Positions 1,910 to 25,275 of a stretch of 32,000 bases of DNA are shown here, in pieces; position 1 is the stretch's first letter; each line of letters starts with the position of its first letter. The DNA is from Thermodesulfobacteriota bacterium. Its GTDB lineage: Bacteria > Desulfobacterota > WTBG01 > JAGOGO01. The notes under the pieces are model-generated. The model did no database searches. It worked only from the letters and a program-made list of their open reading frames with translations, and was not told where the DNA came from. The DNA is taken from contig CP113000.1 of the NCBI GenBank assembly GCA_026625185.1, forward strand, positions 585,622-617,621. Reading direction: 5' to 3'. The position numbers and the translations under genes were made by a program.

Positions 1910-3925
1910 TCACCGGTTGTCTTCATCGTATCCACCGGCGCCGATAGCTTCCCGTAAGAAAAAATCGAGGGTTTGCTCTACCGATTGCTCAAGCTCTATC
2001 GAAGGTTTCCACTGCAAGAGCTGCTTCGCTTTCCGAATGCTTGGCCTTCGGTGTTGCAAATCCTGATACCCGCTTCCATAATACGTTGAGCTTTCCACTT
2101 CCTGAAAACCGGCAAATGGCGGGAAATTTGACCGGAGGGGGTGTTCTTCAAATTTTTTCACCAACATCTCGCCCAGTAGTTTGATGCTCGCCTCATTATT
2201 CGGGTTGCCGATATTGATGATCTGCCCGTCACAACAATGGTTTTTATTTTCGATAACGCGAAACAAGCATTCAATCCCGTCGGAAATATCGGTAAAACAA
2301 CGTTTCTGATTTCCCCCGTCAATGAGTTTAATTGGCGTTCCCTCCACCAGGTTAAGGATGAGTTGGGTAATAGCGCGAGAACTCCCGATCCGTGCCGATT
2401 TCAAGCTATCGAGACGCGGCCCGATCCAATTAAAAGGACGAAAGAGGGTAAAATGGAGCCCTTCCTGCTGACCATATGCCCAGATAACCCGGTCAAGCAA
2501 TTGCTTGCTGCAAGAATAGATCCAACGCTGCATGCGGATCGGCCCCAATACAAGCTTCGAACTATCCTCATTAAACTCGCCTTCATCGCACATTCCATAA
2601 ACTTCAGACGTTGAAGGAAAAATAAGCCGTTTTTTATATTTCACGCAGTATCGGACAACTCTCAGATTTTCTTCAAAGTCGAGCTCAAATACCTGAAGTG
2701 GTCTGCGTGTATATTCTATGGGTGTGGCGATGGCCACGAGCGGGATTACTATATCGCATTTTTTTATATGGTACTCGATCCATTCGCGATGAATGGCAAT
2801 ATCCCCTTCATGAAAATAAAATCCTGGTTTACCCAAAAAGCGTTGAATAGACTTGGATTGAAGGTCCAGCCCGTGTACTTCATAGTTCCCGTTATCCAGA
2901 AGCTTTTCAGTTAAAGCGTTACCGATAAAGCCATCAATCCCTAAAACGAGAATTTTTTTCTTTTTTACCATCTCAATGTGCTGGCTGGTAGAAAGTCCAA
3001 AGGTCATCCCCTCAACCAGATTGAGTTCGCGGGCAAGCTGGGTTCCGCCCATGTAAATACCATTTTCAGCCTGGCCGAAATCAACCCGAATGGCGCCTTT
3101 TCCGCACTGAATCACCAAAGGATCACAAGAAATAATAGTACCGGGATCCCTTTTTTCACCCTTATCAGGAATTTCGGTAACCATCCAAAAAAAACATTTG
3201 CGGTCACCGATATAGCTGAATGCTCCCGGATAAGGAATGGTCACCGCCCGCGCCAGATTTCTCACTTGGGAAGCCGTCGCCGACCAGTGTATTTCACCAT
3301 CCTTGGGCCTGCGTCCGCCATAATACGTTGCCTGAGCATGGTCCTGAGGATGACGGGTTATTGTTCCTTTTTTTATCTGGGGAAGAATTTCATCAAGCAA
3401 CTGGTGCGAAGCCGCAACCGTTTTTTCGTAAAGCGACCGCGCAGTATCATAATCAGAAATTGGGATTCTCTTCTGACCGACAATGTCTCCATCGTCAGCC
3501 CGGGGCGTCATATAATGAAGGGTAACCCCGGTTTCTTTCTCGCCGTTGATCAACACCCAGTTTATCGGACAACGTCCCCGGTATTTGGGGAGAAGCGATC
3601 CGTGAAGGTTGAGGCATCCAGCGGGTGGGATGGCGAGGATGGGAGAACGAACAAGATGTCGGTAATAAAAAGAAAAAATAATGTCCGGCGCGAACTCTTG
3701 AACCTTTTTTACCCAGAGGAGGTGGTTGATATCATCGGGCGCGTACACCAGAAGATTATGGCTCGCGGCGCATTCGGTAACCGAACTAAACCAAACGGTT
3801 TCCTGAGGATCATCCTTATGGGTAAAAACCGCGGCAATCTCGAACCCGTTTCGTATCAGAGCATCAATGCCGATACAACCGATATTATGGTAGGCTAAAA
3901 CGACCGCTTTCATTTTTGATTTCAT
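1910..3925 (-). CDS. arnA: ArnA, bifunctional UDP-Ara4N formyltransferase / UDP-glucuronate oxidative decarboxylase
   Basis: The protein is colinear over its full length with E. coli ArnA as I recall it. The N-terminal formyltransferase part has IFSFYYRHL and [13 protein letters not shown]. The C-terminal SDR part has [66 protein letters not shown] and [33 protein letters not shown]. Start is taken at ATG 3925 (GGGAA a few nt upstream); the track start 3943 is TTG. Confidence 0.95.
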
Positions 3926-4064
3926 CTCATTCCCGCCGACCAATAAGTAGTTATTTTTTTGTAAACTGCTTGATTATTATTTTTTATTTTCCGGTGCTTA
4001 ATTTAAGCGCTTAGTAACAGCATGGAATGGCCGGGAAGAAAATAATTTATTCCGTAACAATTTT

Positions 4065-5024
4065 TCAAACGTTTTGCTCTTTGGCACGGCCAACGACTTT
4101 TTGAACAAAATATCGGGGGCGAGCCCTCACATCCCGATAAATCCGCCCGATATATTCGCCCAGTAAACCCATGCCGATAAATTGAGCCCCGATGAAAATA
4201 AAAAGAAGAGCAAACAAGGTGAAGACACCTTCTGCGGCCCATTCAATCCCATAAATTATTCGCATCGCCAAGATAAGGAGACCCAGTCCGAATCCACCCA
4301 CGGCTATAGTGGCCCCAATGAGAGTCAAAAGTCTTAGGGGAAAGGTCGTCATGCTGGTCAACAGATCAAACATGAGATTGATAAGTTTCCAAAAGCTATA
4401 TTTCGAATTACCTTGAGAACGCTTTTCGTGGTGCACTTCTATTTCGGTGGTAAATCGAGCAAAACTGTTGGCAAGCACCGGGATAAAAGTGGTCCGCTCC
4501 TGACATTGAAGCAAGGCCTCTACAATGGGCCGGCGATATGCCCGGAGCATGCAGCCATAATCATGCATCAACACCCCGGTTGACTGCTGTACCGCCTTGT
4601 TGATTAATAAAGAACTCATTTTTCTGAACAAGGTATCCCGCCGGGACAATCGAATGCTGCCGACGACATCAAATCCGGCTTCCATTTTTTTAACCAACTT
4701 TGGTATTTCCTCTGGAGGATTCTGGAGATCAGCATCGAGAGTAACAACGATTTCACCCCGTGATTCGGCAAAACCTGCCATAACCGCAGGGTGCTGTCCA
4801 TAATTCCGGTTTAGCAGGACCCCGATGATTTTGCCCGGATTCTGTTCGGCAGCTTCGGTAATAAGCTGAGCAGAGCGGTCAGAACTGCCGTCATCCACTA
4901 AAATGATCTCGAAGGTCTTTCCCATACGGTCGCCGGTCGCCAGACAACGACCGATAAGCTCCTTAAGGTTTGCCTCCTCGTTAAAAGCAGGAATAACAAC
5001 CGATAACAAAGGGGTTGTACTCAT
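4065..5024 (-). CDS. arnC: ArnC, undecaprenyl-phosphate 4-deoxy-4-formamido-L-arabinose transferase (GT2)
   Basis: [65 protein letters not shown] and [30 protein letters not shown] all match E. coli ArnC. The ATG overlaps the arnB stop as ATGA at 5021-5024. Confidence 0.95.
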
Positions 5025-6172
5025 CGCTTTAACACCTCTTTTATGGTATCCACCACCGCATCCACGTCTTCAATGGTCATATCCGGAAAAAGGGGGAGCG
5101 AGCAAATCCGGTCGGAGTTCCATTCGGTGTTCGGCAACATGCTCCGGCGTGTGCCCATTGACTCCTGATAATATTTCTGGAGGTGCACCGCCCGAAAATG
5201 AAGTCCGGTGCCGATATTTCTTTTCTTTAATTCTTCCATGAACGCATCCCGGCTCAGGCCGACCTTATCAATATCTAAGCGAATAATAAAAAGATGCCAG
5301 GCATGCTTCATCGGATACAAGGGGTCGGCAAGGGGCATGATTTCATCAACTTCGACCAGCCGTTCACGATATCGCAGAGCTAATGCAGTTCGTTTTTTAA
5401 TGAATGCATCGAGACGTCTCAGTTGGCTCAAGCCCAAGGCAGCAGCCATATCGGTTAGGTTATACTTATATCCGGGAGTAACAACCTGGGCCTGGGGAGA
5501 ACGGCCCTGGGTAAAACGATCGTACGCATCCACGCCCAGCCCGTGGAATTTCAATTGCCGGACATGCTCCAGAAGTCCATGGTTGTCCGAACAAAGCATA
5601 CCTCCTTCACCCGTGGTAATATTTTTTATGGGATGAAAGGAAAAAATCGCAGTTCCGGTCCGGCCGATACGATTACCTTTATACTCAGTCCCCAGCGCGT
5701 GGGCGGCATCATCAGCAATAAAAATATTATTCCGCTCAGCCAACTGGCGTATAGAATCTATATCCGCAGGAGCCCCGGCAAAATGAACCGGAACAATTAA
5801 CCGTGTTCTTTCTCTCAGACACTCCCTGATCGAATCGCCTGACACCATCAATGTGTCCCGTTCAATATCCGCAAACACTGGGGTCGCGCCCGCGAGGACA
5901 ATAATATTCACCGTAGAAACCCAGGTCATTGACGGCGTAATAACTTCATCTCCCGGGCCGATACCTAAAGCGTGCAACAAAAGATGCATTCCCGCAGTCC
6001 CGGAAGCGAGCGCCACCGCCCCCGAACAACCAGTGTATCTGCAGAAATTGTCCTCAAATTCGGCACATTTCTGCCCGGTGGTAATCCACCCCGACCGCAG
6101 TACCTCGACAACCGCGGCGATATCTTCCTCCTTAATGGAAGGATGCGAAAATGGTAAAAATTCTTTTCTCAT
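5021..6172 (-). CDS. arnB: ArnB, UDP-4-amino-4-deoxy-L-arabinose:2-oxoglutarate aminotransferase (DegT/DnrJ/EryC1 family)
   Basis: Aminotransferase fold type I. The [16 protein letters not shown] block carries the PLP lysine, as in ArnB. The N-terminus [27 protein letters not shown] is typical of the family. It is the first biosynthetic gene upstream of arnC. Confidence 0.9.
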
Positions 6173-6210: not shown

Positions 6211-8058
6211 TTACTTAACACTTCCTGACAACATTATTTTTTTATCACAGGACGCTCGCCAGAAGCAATGCTTATTTTTCTTCGCATAAAGGGCTCCCCA
6301 GATATAAAGACAATATGAACGGTGCTTGGCAAAATGCCAGCATCGAAGCAAGTGAATCCGCGAGCGAACTTCATCGGGAAGTTTGGGGAAATCTTTTTCG
6401 AACATGAGAAGCTTTCCCTGATGGGTTGTCGATAGATAAAGGTTGAGTTCTTCAGGGGTTGTTATATTTTCTGGCATAAAACCGGTGTCAAACGAAATAA
6501 CCCCCATCGTCGTCTCATTCAGGCAATACCCCATAAATTCCGGAGAAATACCGCTCATGGTCTGGAGGTCTTTTGTAAGAGAATGACGATTTTTGATCCC
6601 ATCTCTCATTCGGTAATACTGTGAACCGCCACACAAAAAAAAGATAAAAGCAAGCCACGCGCAGACCAAAATTACTCGTGGTGAGCCTTTTTCCCAGAGA
6701 CGCATGCCATAAGTAGTTAATCCTATACCCATGAGCAAGAGTAACCCCCAGAGTATGAAAAACAGTGATGCAGAAGGTTTGGCCTGCAAAACAGTATGAA
6801 AAAACCGTGCAAAAAAGGGCTGGCCCCCGAAATAGGCGACCGGCATGGCCACCGAAGTGGCTAAAACAGACAAAGCTAAAATAATAAGCATAATGGCGTG
6901 CGTAGAGTGATCAATTTTTTGCGAGTTTTCACTTTTAGAGGTTGCCGCAACCCAGGCGCCAATCACGATGCCAAGCGGGGCAAAGAGCGGCAAAAGGTAA
7001 AGCATGCGCTTGGTTCCTGGAATACTCAGGAAAATAACGCCGATCGGAAATATTGAAGCCAGGCAAACCAATGCCGTGCCATTCCATTCCGACGGCCAGC
7101 GCTTGCGCCAGAGCCAGTGCCCAACCGCGGGAAGCGTAATCACCCACGGGATAATTTTGATCGGAAATTTCAGGTAGCGCCAGAAAGGATTCTCATGCCC
7201 CCCCCCGTAATGCTGTGCAGCCGAAGGGAAAATACGATTCACAACATTGGGGATGAAAAAGCCTTTCAAAAAAAGTTCCTTGCCTCCCCGAACATAAAGC
7301 ATGAACGGCCACCAAAGACACAAAGCCAGACAAACAAAAATCCCGGGAATATGCACCCACGAACGAAAAAAATTCCATCTCCGTGTTACCAGAATAGCCC
7401 CAATCAACGGCACCGCAACCAAACCCGGACCAACCGGACCTTTGACAAGGAAAGCAAGGCCGCCGGCAAGGTAGACTACAAAAATCCCCAGCGCGGAAGG
7501 TTCGTCCGGTTTTTTATCACCTAAATCTTTTTTGCCGAAGACGGCAACCACGAATCCCCAATAACCAAGCATGACAAAAAGAGCAAGCCAGGGATCAACC
7601 ACCGCCCTATGGAAGTGGCGATAAAAATCAGACATAGTGGCGGTCACAAGTGTTGCCATAAGGCCGGCAAACGGGTTCGCGACCCGCCTGGCTACATCAA
7701 ACACCAAAAGTAATGTCAAAACTGCGGCCAAGGCACTTGTGCTGCGCGCCACCCCATCGGAAACTCCAAAGAGGCGATACATTCCGGCCATGGCCCACCA
7801 GTAAAGCGGAGGCTTTTCCAGGAATGGTTTTCCTGCCAGGGTGGGAACGATCAAGTCGCCGCTTACTAACATCTCCCGCCCAATCTCAGCGTCGCGGGGT
7901 TCATCAGGCGTCCAGAGCGCATGATCAAAGACTCCGCTGAAAGAAATAAGGAGGCTTGCGGCAAACGCCACCAAAAATGCCTGCCGATTAGTCAAGATAG
8001 TTAACTTTTCAACAAGGCTACCGATCAGTTTTGAGAACCAACTATTCATTATAACCAT
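6211..8058 (-). CDS. GT-C fold, polyprenyl-phosphate-sugar-dependent glycosyltransferase (ArnT/PMT-like, GT39/GT83), paralog 2, 615 aa
   Basis: At least 10 predicted TM segments. The first-loop signature TPDEPRDAEIGREMLVSGDLIVPTLAGKPFLEKPPLYWW parallels the ArnT motif seen at 1..585. There is a C-terminal region of about 150 aa after the last TM. An alternative start is ATG 8049. Confidence 0.75.
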   Translation of the reverse strand: MVIMNSWFSKLIGSLVEKLTILTNRQAFLVAFAASLLISFSGVFDHALWTPDEPRDAEIGREMLVSGDLIVPTLAGKPFLEKPPLYWWAMAGMYRLFGVSDGVARSTSALAAVLTLLLVFDVARRVANPFAGLMATLVTATMSDFYRHFHRAVVDPWLALFVMLGYWGFVVAVFGKKDLGDKKPDEPSALGIFVVYLAGGLAFLVKGPVGPGLVAVPLIGAILVTRRWNFFRSWVHIPGIFVCLALCLWWPFMLYVRGGKELFLKGFFIPNVVNRIFPSAAQHYGGGHENPFWRYLKFPIKIIPWVITLPAVGHWLWRKRWPSEWNGTALVCLASIFPIGVIFLSIPGTKRMLYLLPLFAPLGIVIGAWVAATSKSENSQKIDHSTHAIMLIILALSVLATSVAMPVAYFGGQPFFARFFHTVLQAKPSASLFFILWGLLLLMGIGLTTYGMRLWEKGSPRVILVCAWLAFIFFLCGGSQYYRMRDGIKNRHSLTKDLQTMSGISPEFMGYCLNETTMGVISFDTGFMPENITTPEELNLYLSTTHQGKLLMFEKDFPKLPDEVRSRIHLLRCWHFAKHRSYCLYIWGALYAKKNKHCFWRASCDKKIMLSGSVK

Positions 8059-8130
8059 CGATTTTTTTTAAACAACTATAGCTAATTTGTTTCAAAGACT
8101 CTTAAAAGTATTATTAATAACTCAATGAAG

Positions 8131-8168
8131 ATTAACCTTGCATTAAATAAAAATTAATTTTTCTTAAG
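8131..8168 (-). promoter_or_regulatory. Candidate response-regulator operator, copy 1: four phased NTTAAK repeats
   Basis: The plus strand reads ATTAAC cttgc ATTAAA taaaa ATTAAT ttttc TTAAG, with TTAA cores spaced 11, 11 and 10 bp apart. It lies 73 nt upstream of ATG 8058. It matches 11112..11149 at 29 of 38 positions with identical repeat phasing. Confidence 0.5.
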
Positions 8169-8224
8169 AGATATCTACTGGGAAATGTTGCCTGTGGTGA
8201 AATGATGTTGGTTACGAATTCAAG

Positions 8225-8252
8225 AAAAAACCCCTGGAGTACCTTTACGGGG
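8225..8252 (-). terminator. Possible intrinsic terminator after the 566-aa GT-C gene
   Basis: The minus strand reads CCCCgtaaaggtactccaGGGG followed by TTTTTT. It lies about 58 nt after the stop at 8310. The stem is short (4 GC pairs plus 2 internal pairs), so this is tentative. Confidence 0.35.
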
Positions 8253-8309
8253 TAGAAATGTCACCGCTATCTTTCTTTTTTATCGAAGTCATGACTTCAA
8301 CCCGGCATC

Positions 8310-10010
8310 TTACTGCCTGGTAACGAAATGCACCAAAAGCAGAGGTGGGGCATCATTTTTCTCCGAGTCCTGATGTCTTAGAACCACCTCCAGTCTGAAG
8401 TGATCTTTTCCTAAAGCCGCTAGCCTTTCATAGATGTCTTGAGTGACAAGACAGTAACCCTGTTTTCTGGAAGCCAGTGCGGACACAACCGTCCGGGACT
8501 GTGGATTAAAATCCAACTTTACAAACTCGCGCCGCGCGTAGAAAGGAAGAGCGTCTTTGAGGAAAGTGAAATAAACCGGTTCATTTTCGGGCACAAGGCG
8601 GTTAATGCCCTGGGCAAAGCTGACAATGCTTCTTCGAGCGCTCAGCGGTGGTTCGAGCCAGCCGGAAATCCAGATTATACACAGCACTCCGGTTAAAACG
8701 AAAAGTTTAAAAGCCCTTTGAGGGCGCGAAAAAAGAAAACCGGAACCTATCAATGCTGGAATGGCAAGGCAGCCGCCCACGGCAAGAGTGTGCGTGAGAC
8801 TCGCTACTTCACGGGAATACATAGAGAAACCAACCCCGAAAGAGAAAAGCACACAGCCCAAAGAAAGCAACCCGGCCACAACCCAGCCAAAACGATCTAT
8901 CTTCCTGCTCTCAATTGTTTTCAGAAATTGCCGCAGCAGCACCGCCTCAATCACCCCCACGGCAGGAATCACCGGCAAGAGATGATGAATCGGCTGTTTG
9001 GCGCAAGCTGCAAAAAAAACGAAGGTTCCGGTCAGCCACAAGGAACAAAACCGCAGTCGTGACCAACTTTGCAATTTTCTTCCCCATACCGGCAAAAAAA
9101 GGGCCCCGACGCCTAAAATACTCCAGGGGTAGGTGAACCACGGCCAATTGCCCAAATGTTGGAAATAACCCCAACCATGATGCTCCTGGCTCGGAATCAC
9201 AGACAGTTTTACGTCAGCAATCAACTGTAGCAGAAAGTCTTTGTTCCATAACCAAAGCATTATCGGCCAGGCAAATGCGAACCCTATCACCATGAGCACT
9301 CCCCACCCCGGTCGCATCCGCACTCCCAACTGCCATTGATGCGACACCCATAGTTCCAGCACAATAGGTATGCTCACAATAACCAGCGCCAATGGCCCTT
9401 TGAACAAGCAGGCTAACGAAAGGCTGACATAAAAACCCCACCACGAAACTGACCACGGTCGGCCCTCCTTTTTCCAGACCAACCATAGCAGCAGAGCAAG
9501 GCCGGTAAAAAAGCTCAGCAATAAATCTTGGCTCGGCGAATGACATTGGGAAATAAAATACGGTGTGACGGCCAAAATCAAAGCGGCAATCCGTCCGGTT
9601 TCAGCGTCAAAAAGCCGGCGCGCTGTCGCCCAGGCCACAAAGATAATGCCCAAACCGGCAAGCGCGAACGGCAGTCGGAAGCCGAACTCATTTCGTCCCA
9701 GCAGCCGCATGCTTCCCACCGCGATCCAATCCGCAAACGGGGGTTTCAAAATCCGCGGTTTACCTTCTAATTGCGGCAACAGCCAATGGCCATGGTCGGT
9801 CACATCCGCCGCCGTGCCTGAGATCCGCCGCTCACGCAGATCCGTAATATCGCGCGACCCAAGAAAACAGAACACCGATACGATACAAACGACGCCGACC
9901 AACAGGTCCGCGTATTTTGACCAGAAAGGTGTGTCTTCTGGTTCCTTCCGGGAACATCGCAAAGCCTGCGATTGAGCGCAGCACGGTAGAAATCTAAAAA
10001 AAGTAGTCAA
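8310..10010 (-). CDS. GT-C fold, polyprenyl-phosphate-sugar-dependent glycosyltransferase, paralog 3, 566 aa
   Basis: Polytopic membrane protein. Its first-loop region DLRERRISGTAADVTDHGHWLLPQLEGKPRILKPPFADW is a divergent version of the ArnT/PMT motif, with the DE pair replaced by RE. The only start candidate at the ORF head is TTG 10010 and there is no upstream ATG, so the start is uncertain. Confidence 0.65.
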   Translation of the reverse strand: MTTFFRFLPCCAQSQALRCSRKEPEDTPFWSKYADLLVGVVCIVSVFCFLGSRDITDLRERRISGTAADVTDHGHWLLPQLEGKPRILKPPFADWIAVGSMRLLGRNEFGFRLPFALAGLGIIFVAWATARRLFDAETGRIAALILAVTPYFISQCHSPSQDLLLSFFTGLALLLWLVWKKEGRPWSVSWWGFYVSLSLACLFKGPLALVIVSIPIVLELWVSHQWQLGVRMRPGWGVLMVIGFAFAWPIMLWLWNKDFLLQLIADVKLSVIPSQEHHGWGYFQHLGNWPWFTYPWSILGVGALFLPVWGRKLQSWSRLRFCSLWLTGTFVFFAACAKQPIHHLLPVIPAVGVIEAVLLRQFLKTIESRKIDRFGWVVAGLLSLGCVLFSFGVGFSMYSREVASLTHTLAVGGCLAIPALIGSGFLFSRPQRAFKLFVLTGVLCIIWISGWLEPPLSARRSIVSFAQGINRLVPENEPVYFTFLKDALPFYARREFVKLDFNPQSRTVVSALASRKQGYCLVTQDIYERLAALGKDHFRLEVVLRHQDSEKNDAPPLLLVHFVTRQ

Positions 10011-10240
10011 TCAAAAAACTTTCATAAAAAGATTGACATTGATTAAAGGGGGTATTATCGAATAGCCTTCATAAAGGATTGTGCTCAGTTCTAATCTTTA
10101 TGGTTACCCCTAAACATTATCTTGTTCCTTTTTTTACCTCCCTTATCTAATATGCTTGAAATAATTATTAGAAATATCATAAACTTTACATTTAATAAAA
10201 CAAAAACTAACCAATTGTTTTTCGTGATGAGCCGTTATTA

Positions 10241-10316
10241 TCCAGTGACAAATACTTAAGCCAAGGCCGATTCCTCCCGATAGCCGGGAGCGGTATTTGT
10301 CCACCCGGAGAAGATA
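10241..10316 (-). pseudogene. Relic of a histidine-kinase 3-prime end (G2-box region only)
   Basis: Track ORF 10143..10331 translates to ..YLLRVDKYRSRLSGGIGLGLSICHWIITAH.., against FYRVDTSRSRLSGGVGLGLSICQWIVKAH in the intact kinase. My hand DNA alignment of 10241..10308 against 11255..11322 gives 56 of 68 identities. There is no HisKA or N/G1 part, and similarity stops after AH. Confidence 0.7.
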
Positions 10317-10317
10317 G

Positions 10318-11058
10318 TTATCTGCCATCAATTCTGAGTATTTTGGTTTTTTTGTCGATCATCCTCAAAGTGGCGTTCATCAATCCGCTAAGCAAAAACA
10401 GGATTAACCACAATTGATCCAGAACTAATCTACCATTGACAACTGAATCTCCCAGGATTTCTAAAAAAGTAAAAGATGCAATTATCGCCATAAACGTATC
10501 GTATTCCTTTCGAAGAGCAGTTCGAAAAGAAAATGCTAACTTTGGTGGTTTCCAATTTTTTAGCTTAGGTAAAAAGGTTGGCGTTTCGTGGGCCCATTTC
10601 AGATATTTTTCACTAAATGTTTTTTGCAAAAAGTTCTCCTCAGCAAAAATAATACGCTCATAATAAGTCCAGAAGACAAGCACAAACAGCGAGGTGACCC
10701 ACCACAATCGAAAAAAAAGCGATACTCCAAGGCCTATAACAAAATTCCCCAGATATAATGGGTGTTTGACGATAGAATATATTCCGGTAGTATTTAAAAA
10801 ATCTCCTTTCACCCGTTTAGTATTTCTTCCCGATGTTCCCTTGGGCACTGAGCCAACAGTAAAAAAACGAATTGCCAAGCCAAAAAGCGATATACTAACA
10901 CACCCAATTTCCCAGATATAATCCAGCCGATGACTTTGATAAGGATACTGGTAAACTTTAAAAGCCAGAAGAATTGGTGCGATCAGAAATAAAGGGAGAA
11001 AGCTTCTCCAGCGAAAAAGCCAGGTTCCAGAACTCTCCATATTTTCTCGCAGAGTCAT
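10318..11058 (-). CDS. ICMT/PEMT-family integral membrane methyltransferase (246 aa)
   Basis: The core TTGIYSIVKHPLYLGNF followed by YERIIFAEENFLQKTFSEKYLKWAHETPTFLP is the isoprenylcysteine carboxyl / phospholipid methyltransferase C-terminal signature. Multiple TM segments. GGAGG sits 9 nt upstream of ATG 11058; the track start 11061 is TTG. Confidence 0.8.
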   Translation of the reverse strand: MTLRENMESSGTWLFRWRSFLPLFLIAPILLAFKVYQYPYQSHRLDYIWEIGCVSISLFGLAIRFFTVGSVPKGTSGRNTKRVKGDFLNTTGIYSIVKHPLYLGNFVIGLGVSLFFRLWWVTSLFVLVFWTYYERIIFAEENFLQKTFSEKYLKWAHETPTFLPKLKNWKPPKLAFSFRTALRKEYDTFMAIIASFTFLEILGDSVVNGRLVLDQLWLILFLLSGLMNATLRMIDKKTKILRIDGR

Positions 11059-11111
11059 CAATGTATTCCTCCTATTTTTAGAATCTAATTTTAAATTATA
11101 ATTGGAAGAAC

Positions 11112-11149
11112 ATTAACACAGCGTTAATTTAGGATTAATTTTTATTAAG
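11112..11149 (-). promoter_or_regulatory. Candidate response-regulator operator, copy 2: four phased NTTAAK repeats
   Basis: The plus strand reads ATTAAC acagc GTTAAT ttagg ATTAAT tttta TTAAG, with the same 11/11/10 phasing as 8131..8168. It lies 54 nt upstream of ATG 11058 and 14 nt downstream of the kinase stop. Confidence 0.5.
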
Positions 11150-11162
11150 AAGAAAACGATAT

Positions 11163-12587
11163 TCAAGAGAGTGTGGCGGGAAGAATAACGGTAAAGGTGG
11201 TGCCTTGCTGAGGCGTACTTTTTACGTCAATGGTTCCCTGGTGGGCTTTCACAATCCATTGACAGATACTCAATCCAAGACCTACTCCGCCTGATAGACG
11301 GGAGCGGGATGTGTCCACCCGGTAAAATCGGTCGAATATATGGTGTAAATCATTGGTAGGTATTCCTATGCCTGTGTCTTTTATGACAACTGTTGCCTGG
11401 CATTTTCCCGGTTGTACTGTAAGACCAATATTCCCCCCATCAGGGGTATATTTTATGGCATTATCAATGAGGTTGCTGAAAAGCTGTTTCAGCTTTATGC
11501 GGTCGCCATTTATCAGTACCTCCTCCAAAGCCGAAAAGGTAAAACTGATTTTTTTCTGCATTGCCACAACATTGAAGGCCTCATAGAGTTCTTTAAGCAG
11601 TTCGGAAAAATTTAGATTTTCAATCTTGAGGCTTGCCTTGCCTTCGTCTGCCTGGGAGAGAATGAGGAGATCATTAACGAGCTTGGTCAAAAAATCAAGC
11701 CGTTCGAGATTATTGGCCAGGGCCTCTTGATACTCTTCTGAAGACCGTTTTCGGGAAAGAAAAACTTCAGTCTCACCTTTTAGAGCGGCAAGCGGAGTGC
11801 GCAACTCATGAGCGGCATCAGCAGTAAACCGGGTGAGTTTTTGAAAGGATTCTTCCAGACGTTCCATCATCTGATTGATGGTCATGGCCAGTCTGTCCAG
11901 ATCATCGTTACTTCCCTGCAAGGCCAGCCTTTCGCTCAGATTGCTGGCTGTTATTCGTTTGGTTGTTTCCGTAATTTTATCAATCGGGCGCAAAGATTTC
12001 CGGGATAAAAACCACCCTCCGATGGATCCGAAGATAAAGGCCAGAAAAAACGCCGTCAGAAGGTGTTCTCGAAAGTTTTCAATGGTTCTCTCCATGGGCA
12101 GAAGATAGGTTGCTATCTGAACAATATATTTTAATTCTCCGTTTTCCCGATAGAAATGAGTGCAGATGCGGAAAGGACTTTCCCCCTGAAGAACACTCAA
12201 TGTTGTATGAACAGGTTTTCGATACCTATTGTGATCAGGGAAAACTTTGGGAAAAACAAGTCCCGGTAACGTTAAAGAGGAAAAAAAATCCCTTTCATTT
12301 TGATCGAGCAATCGAAAAGCGATGGGGAAATATTTGCGGTTGGAGGCAACTTTCTCATATTCTCTTAATTCATCGTTTAAAGTTTCAGGATTTTCAAGTA
12401 TCACATTAATAATTTCCTTGGTCTCATCCACCAGCATCCGGTCAATCCCTTTAAGAAGATTACGGCGGAAGCGATAGTCTAAAAATCCAAAGATAAGGAT
12501 TATCATGGTCAAAAACGTTACCGTGTACCATAAGGCCATCCTCACATCGAGTCGTTTGTAAAATTTAATTTTTCCCTTTGAAGACAT
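11163..12587 (-). CDS. Sensor histidine kinase (2 TM, periplasmic domain of about 135 aa, HAMP, HisKA, HATPase_c)
   Basis: H-box FTADAAHELRTPLAAL, N-box LFSNLIDNAIKYTP, G1 VIKDTGIGIP, and G2 GGVGLGLSICQWIV. The overall style is that of the CusS/PmrB-type kinases that partner OmpR-family regulators. ATG 12587 has AAGGTG 6 nt upstream and overlaps the regulator gene by 23 nt. The track start 12596 is GTG. Confidence 0.9.
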   Translation of the reverse strand: MSSKGKIKFYKRLDVRMALWYTVTFLTMIILIFGFLDYRFRRNLLKGIDRMLVDETKEIINVILENPETLNDELREYEKVASNRKYFPIAFRLLDQNERDFFSSLTLPGLVFPKVFPDHNRYRKPVHTTLSVLQGESPFRICTHFYRENGELKYIVQIATYLLPMERTIENFREHLLTAFFLAFIFGSIGGWFLSRKSLRPIDKITETTKRITASNLSERLALQGSNDDLDRLAMTINQMMERLEESFQKLTRFTADAAHELRTPLAALKGETEVFLSRKRSSEEYQEALANNLERLDFLTKLVNDLLILSQADEGKASLKIENLNFSELLKELYEAFNVVAMQKKISFTFSALEEVLINGDRIKLKQLFSNLIDNAIKYTPDGGNIGLTVQPGKCQATVVIKDTGIGIPTNDLHHIFDRFYRVDTSRSRLSGGVGLGLSICQWIVKAHQGTIDVKSTPQQGTTFTVILPATLS

Positions 12588-13239
12588 ATCCGACACCTTT
12601 AACCGTATGAATTAGTTTTGGGGAGAAGTCTTTATCAATTTTAGCCCGGAGATGATTGATGTGGACATCAATAATATTGGTCATGGTGTCAAAATTATAA
12701 TTCCAGATGTGCTCGGAAAGCATGGTGCGGGTCAGAACCTGGCCGGGATTTCTCATAAAATATTCGAGTAGAGCGTATTCTTTTGGGGTAAGGTCAATAA
12801 GAGCATCCCCCCGCCTCACCTCTCGGCTGATTTGATTCAACGTTAAATCAGCATACTGCAAAAGGGGAGATACAACCTCTTTACCCCGACGAAGTATAGC
12901 CCTTATGCGCGCCAACAGCTCATGAAAAGAAAACGGCTTAACAATATAATCGTCAGCTCCTAAATTTAATCCATTCACTATGCTTCCTTCGGAGTCTTTG
13001 GCGGTAAGAAATATGACTGGGGTAGTATTTCCCCTTTCTCTTAAATGAAGAAGAATTTTATCCCCGCTCAAAACCGGGAGCATAATGTCCAGGATAATGA
13101 GGTCATAATTTTCTTGGGTTGCCAAATGAAGACCATCTTCGCCATTTTCCGCAATGTCCAAACTAAAAGAGTTTTCTTTTAACCCTTTTTCAATAAAACG
13201 GGCCACATTTTTATCGTCTTCCACCAACAAAATTCTCAT
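12565..13239 (-). CDS. OmpR/PhoB-family response regulator (receiver plus winged-helix domain)
   Basis: MRILLVEDD, ILDIMLP with the phospho-acceptor Asp, and LTAKD. The C-terminus LTPKEYALLEYFMRNPGQVLTRTMLSEHIWNYNFDTMTNIIDVHINHLRAKID..KLIHTVKGVGYVF is a canonical winged helix. Confidence 0.95.
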   Translation of the reverse strand: MRILLVEDDKNVARFIEKGLKENSFSLDIAENGEDGLHLATQENYDLIILDIMLPVLSGDKILLHLRERGNTTPVIFLTAKDSEGSIVNGLNLGADDYIVKPFSFHELLARIRAILRRGKEVVSPLLQYADLTLNQISREVRRGDALIDLTPKEYALLEYFMRNPGQVLTRTMLSEHIWNYNFDTMTNIIDVHINHLRAKIDKDFSPKLIHTVKGVGYVFKGKN

Positions 13240-13357: not shown

Positions 13358-14317
13358 CTAACGGAAAGCGCCACGCCGGTAAAGCCGCCAGAAAAGTACC
13401 ACCACTCCCACCACCGGAACCCGCCTCAAACGATGATCCATTTGAATCCTAACACCCGAATGCCGTTCTATCTTCCAAAGAACATAATCCAAGCCACCCT
13501 GGAAGGTATATAAGCTTTTAACAAGCTGAAGCAGTGAGAGTATCTTACCCTGGATACGGCGCAAACCCCACATAAGCCGGCTAAAAACGCGCGTCGGAGC
13601 CGGAATACCCGCCCGATAGCGATATACTTGATTGCCGCTTATAGCCTCCACAGAATAAGAAACTGAATTCATGGCAGCCCGAGTTAGTTCTTCGTAATGA
13701 CGTGGAGCAGAGTCAAACAGATCGGTAAGCTTATCACGTCGTTCTGCTCTCAGTTCAGTCCCATAGCTGAGCAAAAGTCCCGTGCACCACAATTCTCGGC
13801 TGGTAAATTGCTGTCGTGGCATGAGGGGCAGCACCCGAGTGATAAAGGTAAGCAGGGCTTGGGCCATTGTGGTGTATATCTGCTCTGCCACATGGTTGTT
13901 ACGCGCGTAGACAAGACCCATCGGCTGAGCCAGCCGACTCCACAGATAAGAGCGAAACCAGCGTGAGGCCCCTTGCTGAAAGTCCCTGAAACTAAAGACG
14001 GTATATTTACAGCGTCTCACGCCTTCTTCGAAAGGGATCTCAAAATAGAATACATTGGGTGGCAAAAGCCTATTCAAAAAAGCGTAGGAGTGTCTGTGGT
14101 AGGCGTGGCGATACCTGTCTACCACAAGGTATAAATCGACGATTCCGTTGCTGTCGTCACCGGTGCGGAAACAGGATCCATACAAAAGAATGGCCTGGGT
14201 GGCGTCGCGGTGGCGCCCAAGGATCTCTTCGGTGAGCGCTTTTATAGCGGGCGGGGACTTACGCAAGGTTTTTTGGCGGATGATGGTAATAAGTTCTGCT
14301 GGCGGGCTGATAATCAT
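13358..14317 (-). CDS. Tam41/Mmp37-like nucleotidyltransferase (candidate lipid-phosphate cytidylyltransferase), 319 aa
   Basis: LLYGSCFRTG..GIVDLYLVVD gives the polymerase-beta-type GS...D-x-D pattern. It is followed by PPNVFYFEI...CKYTVFS..DF, then YLWSRLAQPMGLVY, then LLLSYGTELRAERRDKL. This mirrors my recollection of the Tam41 family profile (YGS.., vyfn.., KYGV, YLAGRLQKPV, LSYxGDxR). The C-terminal tail is hydrophobic and basic. The call is from memory of the profile, not from a search. Confidence 0.5.
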   Translation of the reverse strand: MIISPPAELITIIRQKTLRKSPPAIKALTEEILGRHRDATQAILLYGSCFRTGDDSNGIVDLYLVVDRYRHAYHRHSYAFLNRLLPPNVFYFEIPFEEGVRRCKYTVFSFRDFQQGASRWFRSYLWSRLAQPMGLVYARNNHVAEQIYTTMAQALLTFITRVLPLMPRQQFTSRELWCTGLLLSYGTELRAERRDKLTDLFDSAPRHYEELTRAAMNSVSYSVEAISGNQVYRYRAGIPAPTRVFSRLMWGLRRIQGKILSLLQLVKSLYTFQGGLDYVLWKIERHSGVRIQMDHRLRRVPVVGVVVLFWRLYRRGAFR

Positions 14318-15342
14318 AATTTTAAAAAGGAGGCCTTTCCACCTTCCGTTATGATGAGTTCGGTTGCCTGATTACCCAGGTCATAAAGCTCCCCGTCGAG
14401 GGTGAAGCCGCCGGTAAGTGTGAGCCGTACTTCCCGAGTTTTTCGACTGAAGTATCCATTCTCCGGTGAGCAGAAACGACCTTTTTGACCGCGCAGCAAG
14501 GCCGGTAACGTCCGCAGCAAATACCGTGGCTGGTTGCCGAGTGCGGTGTAGTAAAATACTCCGGTTTCCCCACTCCAGTAAGGTCGTATCCCAAGGAACA
14601 GGCGTTCAAGGGTGCTGATGAGAATTAAGAGGAACTCACGTTCCTCCGAAGGCTCACCGTTCAAGCTAACAGTGGCCCGGGTCGGGGAAAGCAACTTTTT
14701 GTCCATGCGCGCTGCGGCTAACAGAAATCGGCCTAACGTCACACCTGCGGCCAGTTCGCCGCTCACGCCCTTGCTGTGCACCCGATCAAGGCAGAACCGA
14801 ATTCCCTGGCAGATGCCGGCTGCTCCCAAAAACATCCCGTAGAGAGGTTTCTGATCGGGTGTTCCTTCCACTTTCAATAAAGGCCGTTGTACAACAGCCG
14901 CGCTACCGTAGCCGGTGCTGATCCAGGTCAAAAGCCTGCTCAGCGCTTTTCGCGCAGAACCGGATAACCCAACATCCCTGGCAATCATGCTCGCCGTGCC
15001 TGATCGCAAGAGCGCGAGCAAGGGCAGTGGCCCAGGTGATGGCTGTCCGAAAAACTCCGTGAGAACAGCGTGGATGGTGCCGTCACCTCCGTTTACCGCC
15101 ACAACGTCCACTTTGCTCCGAGCGAATTCAGCCAGAGCTGATCCTACTTCTGAAGGTGTGATCGCCTCACGATGGAATACTTGGGGTCGCCTAGCCAGGA
15201 TTTTACGGATGATAGGTAGGCCTTTCCGGTTGCCACCGCTCAGGGGATTACTGATCAAACCGAGGCTGAGCGTTTTGCCGGGCTTCAAAATGGAGGACTC
15301 AGGCAATTGATCGGTTTGAAAAATTTTGGGATCGTCACTCAT
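14314..15342 (-). CDS. DAGK-catalytic-domain lipid kinase (YegS/LCB5/sphingosine-ceramide kinase-like)
   Basis: ISNPLSGGNRKG plus VAVNGGDGTIHAV form the diacylglycerol-kinase catalytic-domain signature. Start is taken at ATG 15342 (MSDDPKIF), 13 nt after the upstream stop; the track start 15420 would overlap the upstream gene by 65 nt. The stop overlaps the next ATG as ATGA at 14314-14317. Confidence 0.8.
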   Translation of the reverse strand: MSDDPKIFQTDQLPESSILKPGKTLSLGLISNPLSGGNRKGLPIIRKILARRPQVFHREAITPSEVGSALAEFARSKVDVVAVNGGDGTIHAVLTEFFGQPSPGPLPLLALLRSGTASMIARDVGLSGSARKALSRLLTWISTGYGSAAVVQRPLLKVEGTPDQKPLYGMFLGAAGICQGIRFCLDRVHSKGVSGELAAGVTLGRFLLAAARMDKKLLSPTRATVSLNGEPSEEREFLLILISTLERLFLGIRPYWSGETGVFYYTALGNQPRYLLRTLPALLRGQKGRFCSPENGYFSRKTREVRLTLTGGFTLDGELYDLGNQATELIITEGGKASFLKL

Positions 15343-15355
15343 CGGTGTCCGGTTA

Positions 15356-16576
15356 TTACTTTGCCGGTCGTTGGGTGAACAGCTTCGCTGCCAATGATTT
15401 ATCATAGGCAGCCTGGTCAATTTCCAACATCCAGGTGCGCAACGGGCCGGAGGTTATCCGGGTAAAAGCGGCCATGCCCAGTCGAATCATCAGAAAAAGA
15501 CTGGTTACCGCGGTCCAGATGGCTACTGCCAATAAACCCAGATCACTGTGCCCGGTAAGGGCGCCGGTCGTCAGCAGGATGAGGTTGGGGTTGCGTCTCG
15601 CGGTAATGAGCCGGAAATACGAGTCCACCGGACGCCAGATGAATATTACAAAAGTTCCCAAAAAATTCTTGAAAACAAGTTCTACCAGACGCCCCACGAT
15701 ATAGCCTGCGATGATCACCCATAATACCGTATCCAAAGATATATCCGGCGATCCCACCTGGGAAGCGCCCAGACCAAGTCCCCAGGCTACGTACCAAACT
15801 GGCGGGTGCAGGAGGTCAATCAGATGATCAAAAAGATGCCCGAACCGAGTAGACGTTATGGTTACGCGGGCCAATTTTCCGTCAACCGTGTCCAGGAAGG
15901 TCATCACCCACCCGGCCAGCAATCCCCAACCGAACTGGCCGCGGGCAAACAACACTGCAGCCAGGATGACCAGCACGAAGCCTATCAAAGTAACCTGGTT
16001 AGGGCTCATGCCGAGATTCGCGCACACTTTTGTGCACCACTGAGCCGGACGCGGCCATACCCATTTGGTCACCAGGTCGGTCACCCCCTTGTAGGACCCG
16101 GCAAAAAGGCGTTGTTCCAGCTCACCACGGTTTATTTCGGTAATGGGTAGAACAAAAGGCGGATCTGACTTTTTGAGGCGCCTATGATAGGACGAAGAGA
16201 GGGTCTCCGGGATTTCGGTTCTAATGCCGGGCAAGGATGTCTCAGGGGATCGGCTGCTCAGGAGTTCCCGCGCTTGCAATGCGCAGCTCGATCGCACCTG
16301 GGCAGCGACCGGTACTCGTGCCCCGTCCGGACCGGCCTGGAGCACCACGTCGGTCATCTCAATCAGACTGTTGATCACCCGATCGTCATAAAGGTAATCA
16401 CCGCGGATTAATAATACTGAACTTTGCGGTGGAATGGATTCAAGATTTTCTAAAAAATCGACTTCGCCCGCGTGCCTGAGCGCTCGCTCCAAGCGCTGGC
16501 GGGAGGACAATCCCCAAAGTGTGATCGGGCTATCACAAAAAATATAGGCGTAGGTCGGCATCAATGAACCTTTCAT
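15356..16576 (-). CDS. CDP-alcohol phosphatidyltransferase family protein with an extra cytoplasmic N-terminal domain of about 150 aa
   Basis: The full CDP-alcohol motif is present: DTVDGKLAR-VTITSTRF-GHLFDHLID, that is D-x2-DG-x2-AR-x8-G-x3-D-x3-D. About 6 TM segments follow. The N-terminal domain is soluble. ATG 16561 (AAAGG 7 nt upstream) is an alternative to ATG 16576. Confidence 0.9.
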   Translation of the reverse strand: MKGSLMPTYAYIFCDSPITLWGLSSRQRLERALRHAGEVDFLENLESIPPQSSVLLIRGDYLYDDRVINSLIEMTDVVLQAGPDGARVPVAAQVRSSCALQARELLSSRSPETSLPGIRTEIPETLSSSYHRRLKKSDPPFVLPITEINRGELEQRLFAGSYKGVTDLVTKWVWPRPAQWCTKVCANLGMSPNQVTLIGFVLVILAAVLFARGQFGWGLLAGWVMTFLDTVDGKLARVTITSTRFGHLFDHLIDLLHPPVWYVAWGLGLGASQVGSPDISLDTVLWVIIAGYIVGRLVELVFKNFLGTFVIFIWRPVDSYFRLITARRNPNLILLTTGALTGHSDLGLLAVAIWTAVTSLFLMIRLGMAAFTRITSGPLRTWMLEIDQAAYDKSLAAKLFTQRPAK

Positions 16577-24278: not shown

Positions 24279-24335
24279 GCCGAAACTTTGAACCCGATAC
24301 CAAAAGGCATTTATACACTAAACTAATTAAGTGAT

Positions 24336-24872
24336 ACCTAAACTGAGCGATTTTTCTTCGCTAATATACCCAAATCATGGTAGCACAGGTCAGAATATTT
24401 CACCTTTGATAACCGGCGAGATGCCTTTTCTACGATGTTTTGTTAATAAAATCGCTAAGTTAGTTGATATTTATTATTGATTATAATTTATTTATAACAT
24501 TAAATCACTCTTGTCCAAATTTTTTATTGATTATAATTTATTTATAATATAAAATAACTTTTTTCAAAATTAAGTTTTTTTAAAAAAAACAATATGTTGG
24601 ACAGAAGAATGAACATGGGGTATGGTTACCTCCTCGACCCCCTGAAATAACTCTATTGAAAGGCCTTTTGCTCTTAGGAAACGAAACCTTTGCAAAAAAT
24701 ATTTTTTGGTCACCCGGAACTAGTTTTAGGTTCTCGGAACATGTTGATTTTATTAGATGCTGAAACAAGTTCAGCATAACATAATAGTCTTAATTGACAT
24801 TTGGGCAACAAGCTCTTCTGACCTGTCCTACTGTGGTTTTGGAACCTTAAACAAGAATCGCTCAGTTTAGGT
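24336..24872. mobile_element. 537-bp noncoding element bounded by perfect 17-bp inverted repeats (MITE-like)
   Basis: ACCTAAACTGAGCGATT at 24336..24352 is the exact reverse complement of AATCGCTCAGTTTAGGT at 24856..24872. The interior is AT-rich and has no credible ORF. It contains a 2 x 50 bp tandem repeat and an 8-bp-stem hairpin, ATGCTGAA-acaag-TTCAGCAT (24757..24777). I saw no target-site duplication. Confidence 0.45.
24471..24570. repeat. Tandem direct repeat, 2 x 50 bp
   Basis: Copies 24471..24520 and 24521..24570 match at 43 of 50 positions by hand alignment. This includes a perfect 24-nt core, TTATTGATTATAATTTATTTATAA, at 24474..24497 and 24524..24547. Confidence 0.85.
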
Positions 24873-25021
24873 CTCGAATACCATCAACGTTCGAAGGTTT
24901 TCGCTACTTTTCACTGAAAATTTTTCTGGCTTTTTACAACTAATCGGGAGAAAAACCAAATTTTTTAATGACAGACTTATTTTTTGATTGAATAAGTAAA
25001 AATTTTGTGTTAAGAAAAAAA

Positions 25022-25054
25022 ATTAAATATTATTAATGTGTAATAATATTTAAT
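25022..25054. promoter_or_regulatory. Perfect 14-bp inverted repeat with a 5-nt spacer (candidate operator) upstream of the FAAL operon
   Basis: ATTAAATATTATTA-atgtg-TAATAATATTTAAT. A second perfect 12-bp inverted repeat (ATACTATAAAAT 25068..25079 and ATTTTATAGTAT 25100..25111) overlaps a consensus TATAAT at 25109..25114. Confidence 0.4.
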
Positions 25055-25275
25055 GGATATTATAAAAATACTATAAAATATTAGGTTATTTTCTATTTGA
25101 TTTTATAGTATAATTTGTTTAAAACATCACTTTCATCTTAAAAAAACCCCATTAGCATCACGTCGGAAAAATTTTTGAGAGGATATACTAAGGAATTTAT
25201 AAAGTTCCACGTATAAATTAGGAATAAAGTTTCTAAAAAAATGTAGTCATTTTGAACATCAAGGAGTCTATTCTT

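Follow-up and report, generated by a model that had tools for sequence, protein, structure and literature searches.

The response regulator PhoB binds as a head-to-tail dimer to half-sites phased at 11 bp, and the proximal pho box, whose end lies about 10 bp upstream of the -10 element, takes the place of the -35 element. At some pho promoters, that of pstS for example, tandem boxes offer four half-sites to two dimers. The PmrA box is a direct repeat of the form XTTAAY-N5-XTTAAY, which appears as CTTAAT/CCTAAG at the pbgP promoter of Klebsiella pneumoniae (PMC3973317, PMC10570014), and it replaces the -35 element of a sigma-70 promoter (PMC10570014). The heavy-metal regulators recognise boxes such as ATTCATnnATGTAAT (CusR of Pseudomonas), AAAATGACAAnnTTGTCATTTT (CusR of E. 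coli), CTGACAn5GTAAT (CopR) and GAAACn6GTAAT (CzcR) (PMC11195947). ColRS of Pseudomonas and RaxHR of Xanthomonas are described as metal-responsive two-component systems that control lipid A remodelling (PMC8306577, PMC13524251). The subject of this report is a pair of 38-bp elements, each composed of four direct TTAA half-sites, in a 32,000-nt stretch of contig CP113000.1 from an uncultured Thermodesulfobacteriota bacterium of the sulfate-reducer type; this whole stretch is referred to as the window. One array lies ahead of an ArnT-like glycosyltransferase gene followed by arn genes for aminoarabinose addition, the other ahead of a gene for an LmtA-like methyltransferase, and a response regulator and a sensor kinase are encoded next to the second array. 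Their sequence and context make it well supported that the element is a direct-repeat operator of the OmpR/PhoB family at a class-II promoter for lipid A control, in other words a known type of switch in a new lineage with no new mechanism. More specifically, the arrays are predicted, with a probability of about 0.75, to be class-II activator operators for two dimers of the adjacent regulator.

Read on the coding (minus) strand, copy 1 is cTTAAG-aaaa-aTTAAT-tttta-tTTAAT-gcaag-gTTAAT, and in both copies the TTAA cores start 10, 11 and 11 bp apart (11, 11, 10 on the plus strand). The copies agree at 29 of 38 positions and their likeness extends further, to 64 nt (8106-8169 against 11087-11150; 45/64 identical, 70%) that include the -10 region, and all genes flanking either copy lie on the minus strand. 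Three tests show that the two arrays did not arise by chance. Allowing up to two mismatches, the four-core pattern gave four matches in the window, which are the two elements and their own shifted registers, where shuffled sequences lead to an expectation of 0.04. TTAA-N7-TTAA occurs in the 32-kb window only within the two copies. Finally, a position weight matrix (PWM) trained solely on instances from other loci gave the copies the scores listed in Table 1, with the next independent match at 11.5 bits, a mean over the window of -47 and a standard deviation of 11.6. An approximately 970-bp AT-rich non-coding stretch (24280-25250) has no copy of the array, so the motif is not a general trait of AT-rich intergenic DNA, at least within the window. 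The sequence-only reading that first drew attention to the elements had given their sequences, identity and spacing exactly; it had also claimed a common orientation to the downstream minus-strand genes, which holds here and recurs in seven further loci, and had named a similar motif density throughout AT-rich intergenic DNA of the genome as evidence that would speak against it, where the window contains the two arrays alone and none at 24280-25250.

The arrays recur in other genomes along two independent routes. For the first of these, 160 loci (1.27 Mb) encoding LmtA-family proteins were gathered from many phyla; a search of the genome collection with the single LmtA-like protein returned no relatives and an alignment query succeeded. 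A plain search of the 160 loci for three phased TTAA cores found them in eight, nearly all just upstream of the lmtA homologue or a neighbour. The closest lmtA relatives have full four-core arrays with a -10 element at the same distance; these are L088, whose LmtA is 84% identical, L089 (83%), which has two arrays, and L090 (61%). The full PWM gave 13 hits of 14 bits or more in the 1.27 Mb, and every one falls on the strand of lmtA, most of them just upstream of lmtA or by a kinase gene.

The second route led through orthologues of the regulator (88, 82, 73, 72, 66, 65 and 64% identity) to seven loci, L172-L178. Every one of them encodes regulator and kinase followed by lipopolysaccharide (LPS) or lipid A genes, and every one carries an array on the strand of the two-component genes, often no more than about 20 bp from the kinase stop codon. 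Perfect arrays (16/16 core positions, spacing 10, 11, 11) are found in five loci, at L172:7581, L173:12097, L174:14706, L176:5114, L175:12083 and L175:13371, while those at L177:12094 (15/16) and L178:14260 (three boxes) are imperfect; a leave-one-locus-out PWM found no further sites of at least 16 bits in L172-L178. The genes of these loci include ICMT/PEMT, PMT_2 GT-C, LAB_N, a Kdo-kinase/GT4 fusion, a WaaY-like kinase, GT2, Metallophos, DedA and arnBCAD-like genes, as well as a PTP phosphatase with an EptA-like sulfatase; in L174 and L176 an EptA-like sulfatase and PMT_2 lie downstream of the arrays. Over 13 instances the cores are conserved at 1.88 bits per position against 0.67 for the spacers, and L174 and L176 have GC-rich spacers (TTAAGAACGCTTAATGCCGCCTTAACCTCTCGTTAAT) with all four cores and their spacing intact. 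The consensus of the array is TTAAgAAaaaTTAATttTnanTTAATccnnnnTTAATc, followed after about 10 nt by TATAAT. Comparative genomics thus argues strongly for a functional array, and the earlier proposal of an OmpR-family operator of PmrA-box form, offering four phased half-sites to two dimers and probably serving the regulator at 12565-13239, is supported, the array travelling with regulator orthologues in the seven further loci. About 90 bp upstream of the strong array, the opposite strand of L174 and L176 also has a weak and partial one (L174:14613 and L176:5021, minus strand; 12-15 bits; TGAAT..TTAAT..TCAAC..) that could be a divergent or auxiliary site.

The arrays stand in a constant relation to a predicted -10 element (Table 1). 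In four-box arrays TATAAT, TATAGT, TATACT or CATAAT follows 11-12 nt past the last TTAA, and in L178, where the fourth box is degenerate, the distance from the last intact TTAA to the -10 hexamer is longer by about one site-spacing. At copy 1 the TATTAA that occupies this register is overlapped by ATTAAT (8118-8113) and AATAAT (8115-8110). The -35 position holds CGCTGT at copy 2 (0/6 against TTGACA) and TGCAAG, with no -35 element, at copy 1. Setting the -10 element at -12 to -7 places the nTTAAT hexamers at approximately -29 to -24, -40 to -35, -51 to -46 and -61 to -56. Transcription would then be predicted to start near 11088 for lmtA and near 8103-8107 for the arnT-like gene. A canonical sigma-70 promoter was considered for the arrays and rejected, a consensus scan having found no sigma-70 promoter and no -35/-10 pair at either array, and this absence fits an activator-dependent promoter. 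An RNA element was also rejected, given that the array lies upstream of the predicted -10 element and that Rfam has no match in 7800-11400 at E <= 1 and none in the whole window at gathering score.

Table 1. Positions of the putative operators, predicted promoter elements and genes in the window
Feature	Position	Strand	Remarks
Operator copy 1 (putative)	8131..8168	minus	four direct TTAA half-sites; PWM 37.2 bits
Copy 1 cores, plus-strand reading	8132-8135, 8143-8146, 8154-8157, 8164-8167		
Operator copy 2 (putative)	11112..11149	minus	PWM 39.6 bits; starts 14 nt past the kinase stop codon
Copy 2 cores, plus-strand reading	11113-11116, 11124-11127, 11135-11138, 11145-11148		
-10 region, arnT-like operon (predicted)	8110..8119	minus	TATTAA 8119-8114, 12 nt past the last TTAA
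-10 element, lmtA promoter (predicted)	11095..11100	minus	perfect TATAAT, 12 nt past the last TTAA of copy 2
OmpR/PhoB-family response regulator	12565..13239	minus	proposed binder of the TTAA arrays
Sensor histidine kinase	11163..12596	minus	two transmembrane segments, HAMP, HisKA, HATPase; H-box AAHELRTPL
LmtA-like ICMT/PEMT-family membrane methyltransferase	10318..11061	minus	downstream of copy 2; Pfam PEMT and ICMT matches
Kinase 3'-end relic	10220-10308		between lmtA and second GT-C; 76% identical over 89 nt to 11234-11322
Second GT-C (PMT_2) glycosyltransferase	8310..10010	minus	without an array of its own
ArnT-like GT-C (PMT_2) glycosyltransferase	6211..8058	minus	first gene 3' of copy 1; Pfam PMT_2 E = 1e-14
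arnB	5021-6172	minus	NCBIfam ArnB 587 bits
arnC	4065-5024	minus	NCBIfam ArnC 496 bits
arnA	1910-3943	minus	NCBIfam ArnA 1087 bits
arnD-like deacetylase	986-1909	minus	Polysacc_deac_1 match

The regulator is 50% identical to CusR of E. coli, 41% to QseB, 38% to BasR/PmrA and 37% to PhoB. Its kinase passes the heavy-metal sensor kinase model TIGR01386 (316.2 bits, cut-off 292.55) and the regulator itself falls just below the cut-off of the corresponding regulator model TIGR01387 (276.2 against 279.2 bits). The pair stays well under the thresholds of the PmrA equivalog (188.4 bits, cut-off 330), PmrB (151.8, cut-off 314) and PhoB (194, cut-off 296) models. Whole-protein comparison places the regulator in the 'heavy-metal' clade of CusR, CopR and CzcR and not among the PmrA orthologues. 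It retains the phospho-acceptor Asp51 and Lys101. The recognition helix reads TNIIDVHINHLR, the counterparts in PmrA and CusR being TNTLEVHIHNLR and TNAIDVAVKRLR, and its core TNxxDVHxxHLR is found in 117 of the 119 closest homologues that cover the region, the other two having Glu for Asp; one homologue is truncated. The periplasmic domain of the kinase (approximately residues 41-170) contains two ExxE-type motifs, ETKE and ELRE. Motifs of this type are implicated in Fe3+ sensing by PmrB. As PmrB-like iron sites, ETKE and ELRE were discounted, being too short to interpret and no evidence of anything. The His/Met copper ligands of CusS had no conspicuous counterpart on a reading of this domain.

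The likeness to PmrA-type boxes that the sequence-only reading had seen is borne out for the half-site and its 11-bp phase, which equal those of CTTAAG-N5-CTTAAT as read directly in the eptA and pmrR promoters of E. coli, with the caveat that the regulator belongs to the CusR/CopR clade and is no PmrA orthologue. Like the PmrA box, the window arrays consist of direct nTTAAn hexamers (11-bp phase in PmrA, cores at 10, 11 and 11 bp here), and they are predicted from sequence to occupy the -35 place of a sigma-70 promoter. The targets are alike as well, the PmrAB regulon (pbgP/arn, eptA/pmrC, ugd, pmrR) being made up of lipid A phosphate-masking genes that include the aminoarabinose operon (PMC10570014, PMC3973317). 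They differ in that PmrA uses two half-sites and the window arrays have four, that the regulator fails the PmrA equivalog at 38% identity to BasR with H195 replaced by Asn, that no box was found ahead of the window's own two-component operon and that its putative regulon takes in an LmtA-like methyltransferase.

CusR, CopR and CzcR constitute the closest protein family of the window pair, and their GTAAT and ATTCAT half-sites (PMC11195947) are one base away from TTAAT, with variants of this kind occurring in the arrays of L008, L147 and L094. The known boxes of this clade are two-part, often palindromic, and lie beside copper, silver or zinc resistance genes, unlike the four direct TTAAT repeats of the window. 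No metal efflux or oxidase neighbours were found in the window or in any of the eight regulator-linked loci (L089 and L172-L178), which have LPS and lipid A genes instead. The two proximal hexamers of the window arrays sit at the positions of the pho-box half-sites, but PhoB recognises CTGTCAT and not TTAAT, shares 37% identity with the regulator and has phosphate-scavenging targets unlike those found here. ColRS and RaxHR resemble the window pair as non-PmrAB systems of the OmpR family that link a metal-type periplasmic sensor to lipid A remodelling. ColR is not known to bind a TTAA repeat.

It is proposed that the adjacent kinase, on receiving an inducing signal, would phosphorylate the regulator, which would then dimerise. 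Two head-to-tail dimers would occupy the four direct nTTAAT half-sites, which the spacing of 10, 11 and 11 bp would place on one face of the helix. The two promoter-proximal half-sites (approximately -40 to -35 and -29 to -24) would stand in for the missing -35 element, and the proximal dimer would bring sigma-70 RNA polymerase to the -10 element 11-12 nt downstream, by recruitment or re-positioning, as in the class-II activation of PmrA and PhoB. The output would be the joint induction of the aminoarabinose operon and the LmtA-like methyltransferase, perhaps with the second GT-C glycosyltransferase as well, and both outputs are expected to remodel lipid A phosphates.

Three rival explanations were weighed. 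The sites overlap the core promoter region, OmpR-family proteins are able to repress from such positions, and the array lies directly behind the kinase in several loci, so that read-through from the two-component genes could give a basal expression in need of restraint; the same regulator might on these grounds be a repressor, its two dimers blocking RNA polymerase over approximately -61 to -24 until a signal relieves the block. Repression is nevertheless improbable, as promoters with -35 matches of 0/6 and 2/6, and none in the consensus scan, should be very weak without an activator, and the half-sites are placed relative to the -10 element as in the activating geometry of PmrA and PhoB, with the box standing in for the -35 element (PMC10570014). 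A different protein could also occupy the arrays, either an OmpR-family regulator encoded elsewhere or an AT-preferring protein of the nucleoid type, which would make the adjacency of the two-component genes incidental. Cross-binding is documented among CusR, CopR and CzcR (PMC11195947), and L055, L107 and L129 carry the motif with no regulator gene in the fetched sequence. The presence of the array in 7/7 loci with a regulator orthologue, so often close behind the kinase, is hard to reconcile with such a binder, as are a recognition helix that is near-invariant across orthologues and altered where the half-site is altered (L008), and fixed direct repeats of 10, 11 and 11 bp, which are the signature of tandem winged-helix proteins and not of nucleoid proteins; a foreign binder is accordingly thought unlikely. 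There is very little probability that the arrays serve no specific protein at all, as a phased, curved AT-rich element resembling an UP element or as the relic of a duplicated promoter segment. The spacers of the window copies are indeed rich in A/T tracts, the kinase relic testifies to a past segmental duplication and L089 has a duplicated kinase 3' end with its array, yet conservation is concentrated in the cores, and arrays are kept where LmtA (down to 61%, L090) or the regulator (down to 64%) has diverged too far for a recent duplication. Curvature by A-tracts was rejected on the GC-rich spacers of L174 and L176 (GAACGC, TGCCGCC, CCTCTCG), between which cores and spacing are intact.

Several observations weigh against activation by the adjacent regulator. 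Autoregulation is typical of PmrA and is not seen in this clade, no array having been found upstream of the regulator operon in the window or in L172-L178. At copy 1 the -10 region is weak and can be read as TATTAA, ATTAAT or AATAAT, and three motif-bearing lmtA loci (L129, L107 and L055) have no regulator gene in the available sequence. The 'TAA' bases are reported to be read in PmrA by T187, N188, V192 and H195 (PMC10570014), and the match of the reading head is partial, with Thr, Asn and Val present in the window regulator, H195 replaced by Asn and a His at the next position. CusR also has the same Thr, Asn and Val, so that these residues do not tell the boxes apart.

More distant relatives keep the four-site architecture with mixed half-sites. 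The four sites of the array in L008 and L091 are TTAAA, GTAAT, GTAAT and TTAAT, those of L147, directly behind the kinase gene, are TTAAC, ATAAT, GTAAT and TTAAT, and those of L094 are TAAAG, TTCAT, TTCAT and TTAAC. TTAAT thus grades into the GTAAT and TTCAT half-sites that characterise the CusR clade, and in view of this continuum a convergent origin of the likeness to the PmrA box is more probable than an inherited one. In L008 two of the four half-sites are GTAAT and the recognition helix of the regulator is TNIVDVLICKLR, so that helix and half-site appear to vary together in this single example. The L008/L091 array lies ahead of an operon of lmtA, regulator and kinase genes, which diverges from an arn operon, an arrangement that in L008 suggests autoregulation, contrary to the clade of the window. 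The L008 regulator gene, downstream of lmtA in a metagenome-assembled genome of the Thermodesulfobacteriaceae, is split into two open reading frames (6760-7026 and 7030-7455 within L008:6760-7455) and could be a pseudogene or the result of an assembly error.

A second architecture is seen upstream of more distant lmtA homologues (L140:673, L129:5153, L107:1912, L113:150 and L055:2040), in which three phased boxes are followed by a conserved gttcCTGTCATc. A single CTGTCAT, the heptamer that forms the pho-box half-site, comes after the three-box arrays of L140, L129, L107 and L113. From the three-box region of L140, a gene for a regulator of 62% identity is transcribed divergently.

The genes downstream of the arrays were assigned by family. 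The ArnT-like protein scores 127 bits on the NCBIfam ArnT model (equivalog cut-off 567), and the LmtA-like protein is best matched by TIGR04571 LmtA_Leptospira at 222.9 bits (cut-off 325), which makes it a candidate lipid A 1-phosphate methyltransferase. The claim that the arrays precede two lipid A modification genes therefore stands at the level of family, both proteins remaining below the curated equivalog cut-offs. The ArnT-like gene and the tightly packed arnB, arnC, arnA and arnD-like genes presumably form one operon. The second GT-C gene is preceded by an interval (10011-10220) that on reading contains a single TTAA and no third array, and a search between lmtA and this gene for terminator-like sites on the minus strand gave none; judging from the layout, it may be transcribed from the lmtA promoter. 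Besides the kinase relic in the window, a similar relic with a copy of the array is found ahead of lmtA in L089 (5580-5885), where the intact kinase is followed by another array and by inserted genes (an OEP-like fragment, a GT2-like gene and a sulfotransferase). A block of kinase 3' end and array appears to have been duplicated in rearrangements of the locus.

Directly upstream of the regulator gene, at 13358-16576, the window encodes a CDP-alcohol phosphatidyltransferase, a DAGK-like lipid kinase and a weakly Tam41-like protein, a trio that is kept in loci of the same species and may be a head-group pathway tied to envelope remodelling; no copy of the array was found ahead of it. In the AT-rich stretch at 24280-25250 a segment of 50 bp is duplicated in tandem (24469-24518 and 24519-24568, 86% identical), and a third, weaker copy lies at 25096-25145. 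The stretch also has 26-nt inverted repeats at 24333-24358 and 24850-24875 that are 88% complementary, and no Rfam match.

No description of the window system was found in the literature; a broader search gave PmrAB, ColRS, VprAB and related systems, from Proteobacteria only, and the literature searched yielded nothing on how envelope stress is regulated in these uncultured anaerobes. In the regulator map of Desulfovibrio vulgaris an NtrC-type regulator is the only one placed on lpxC and only two regulators of the OmpR family are included (PMC3333781). This map was set aside as a prior description, an NtrC-type regulator on lpxC not being the same system.

If the activator operator is confirmed, an uncharacterised two-component system would gain a precisely delimited operator of four nTTAAT sites at 10, 11 and 11 bp, and a candidate regulon of arn, lmtA, eptA-like, GT-C and LPS-core kinase genes. 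The sequence of events from a kinase through TTAA repeats at -35 to the masking of lipid A charge would then not be limited to Gammaproteobacteria, and the same logic would be able to arise in a different clade of regulators. The graded half-sites TTAAT, GTAAT and TTCAT, with the accompanying changes in the recognition helix, provide a natural data set on how specificity evolves in the OmpR family. A further suggestion, tentative and held at somewhat less than even odds, is that a CusRS-clade system widespread in Thermodesulfobacteriota and neighbouring groups has been diverted from a role in metal resistance to one in envelope remodelling, that its operator has converged on TTAAT from GTAAT or TTCAT with four sites fixed at 10, 11 and 11 bp, and that its regulon couples the addition of aminoarabinose to LmtA-type methylation of lipid A phosphate. 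If this were true, it would represent the first example of lipid A methylation under inducible control, and PmrAB-like logic would have been invented independently outside the Proteobacteria.

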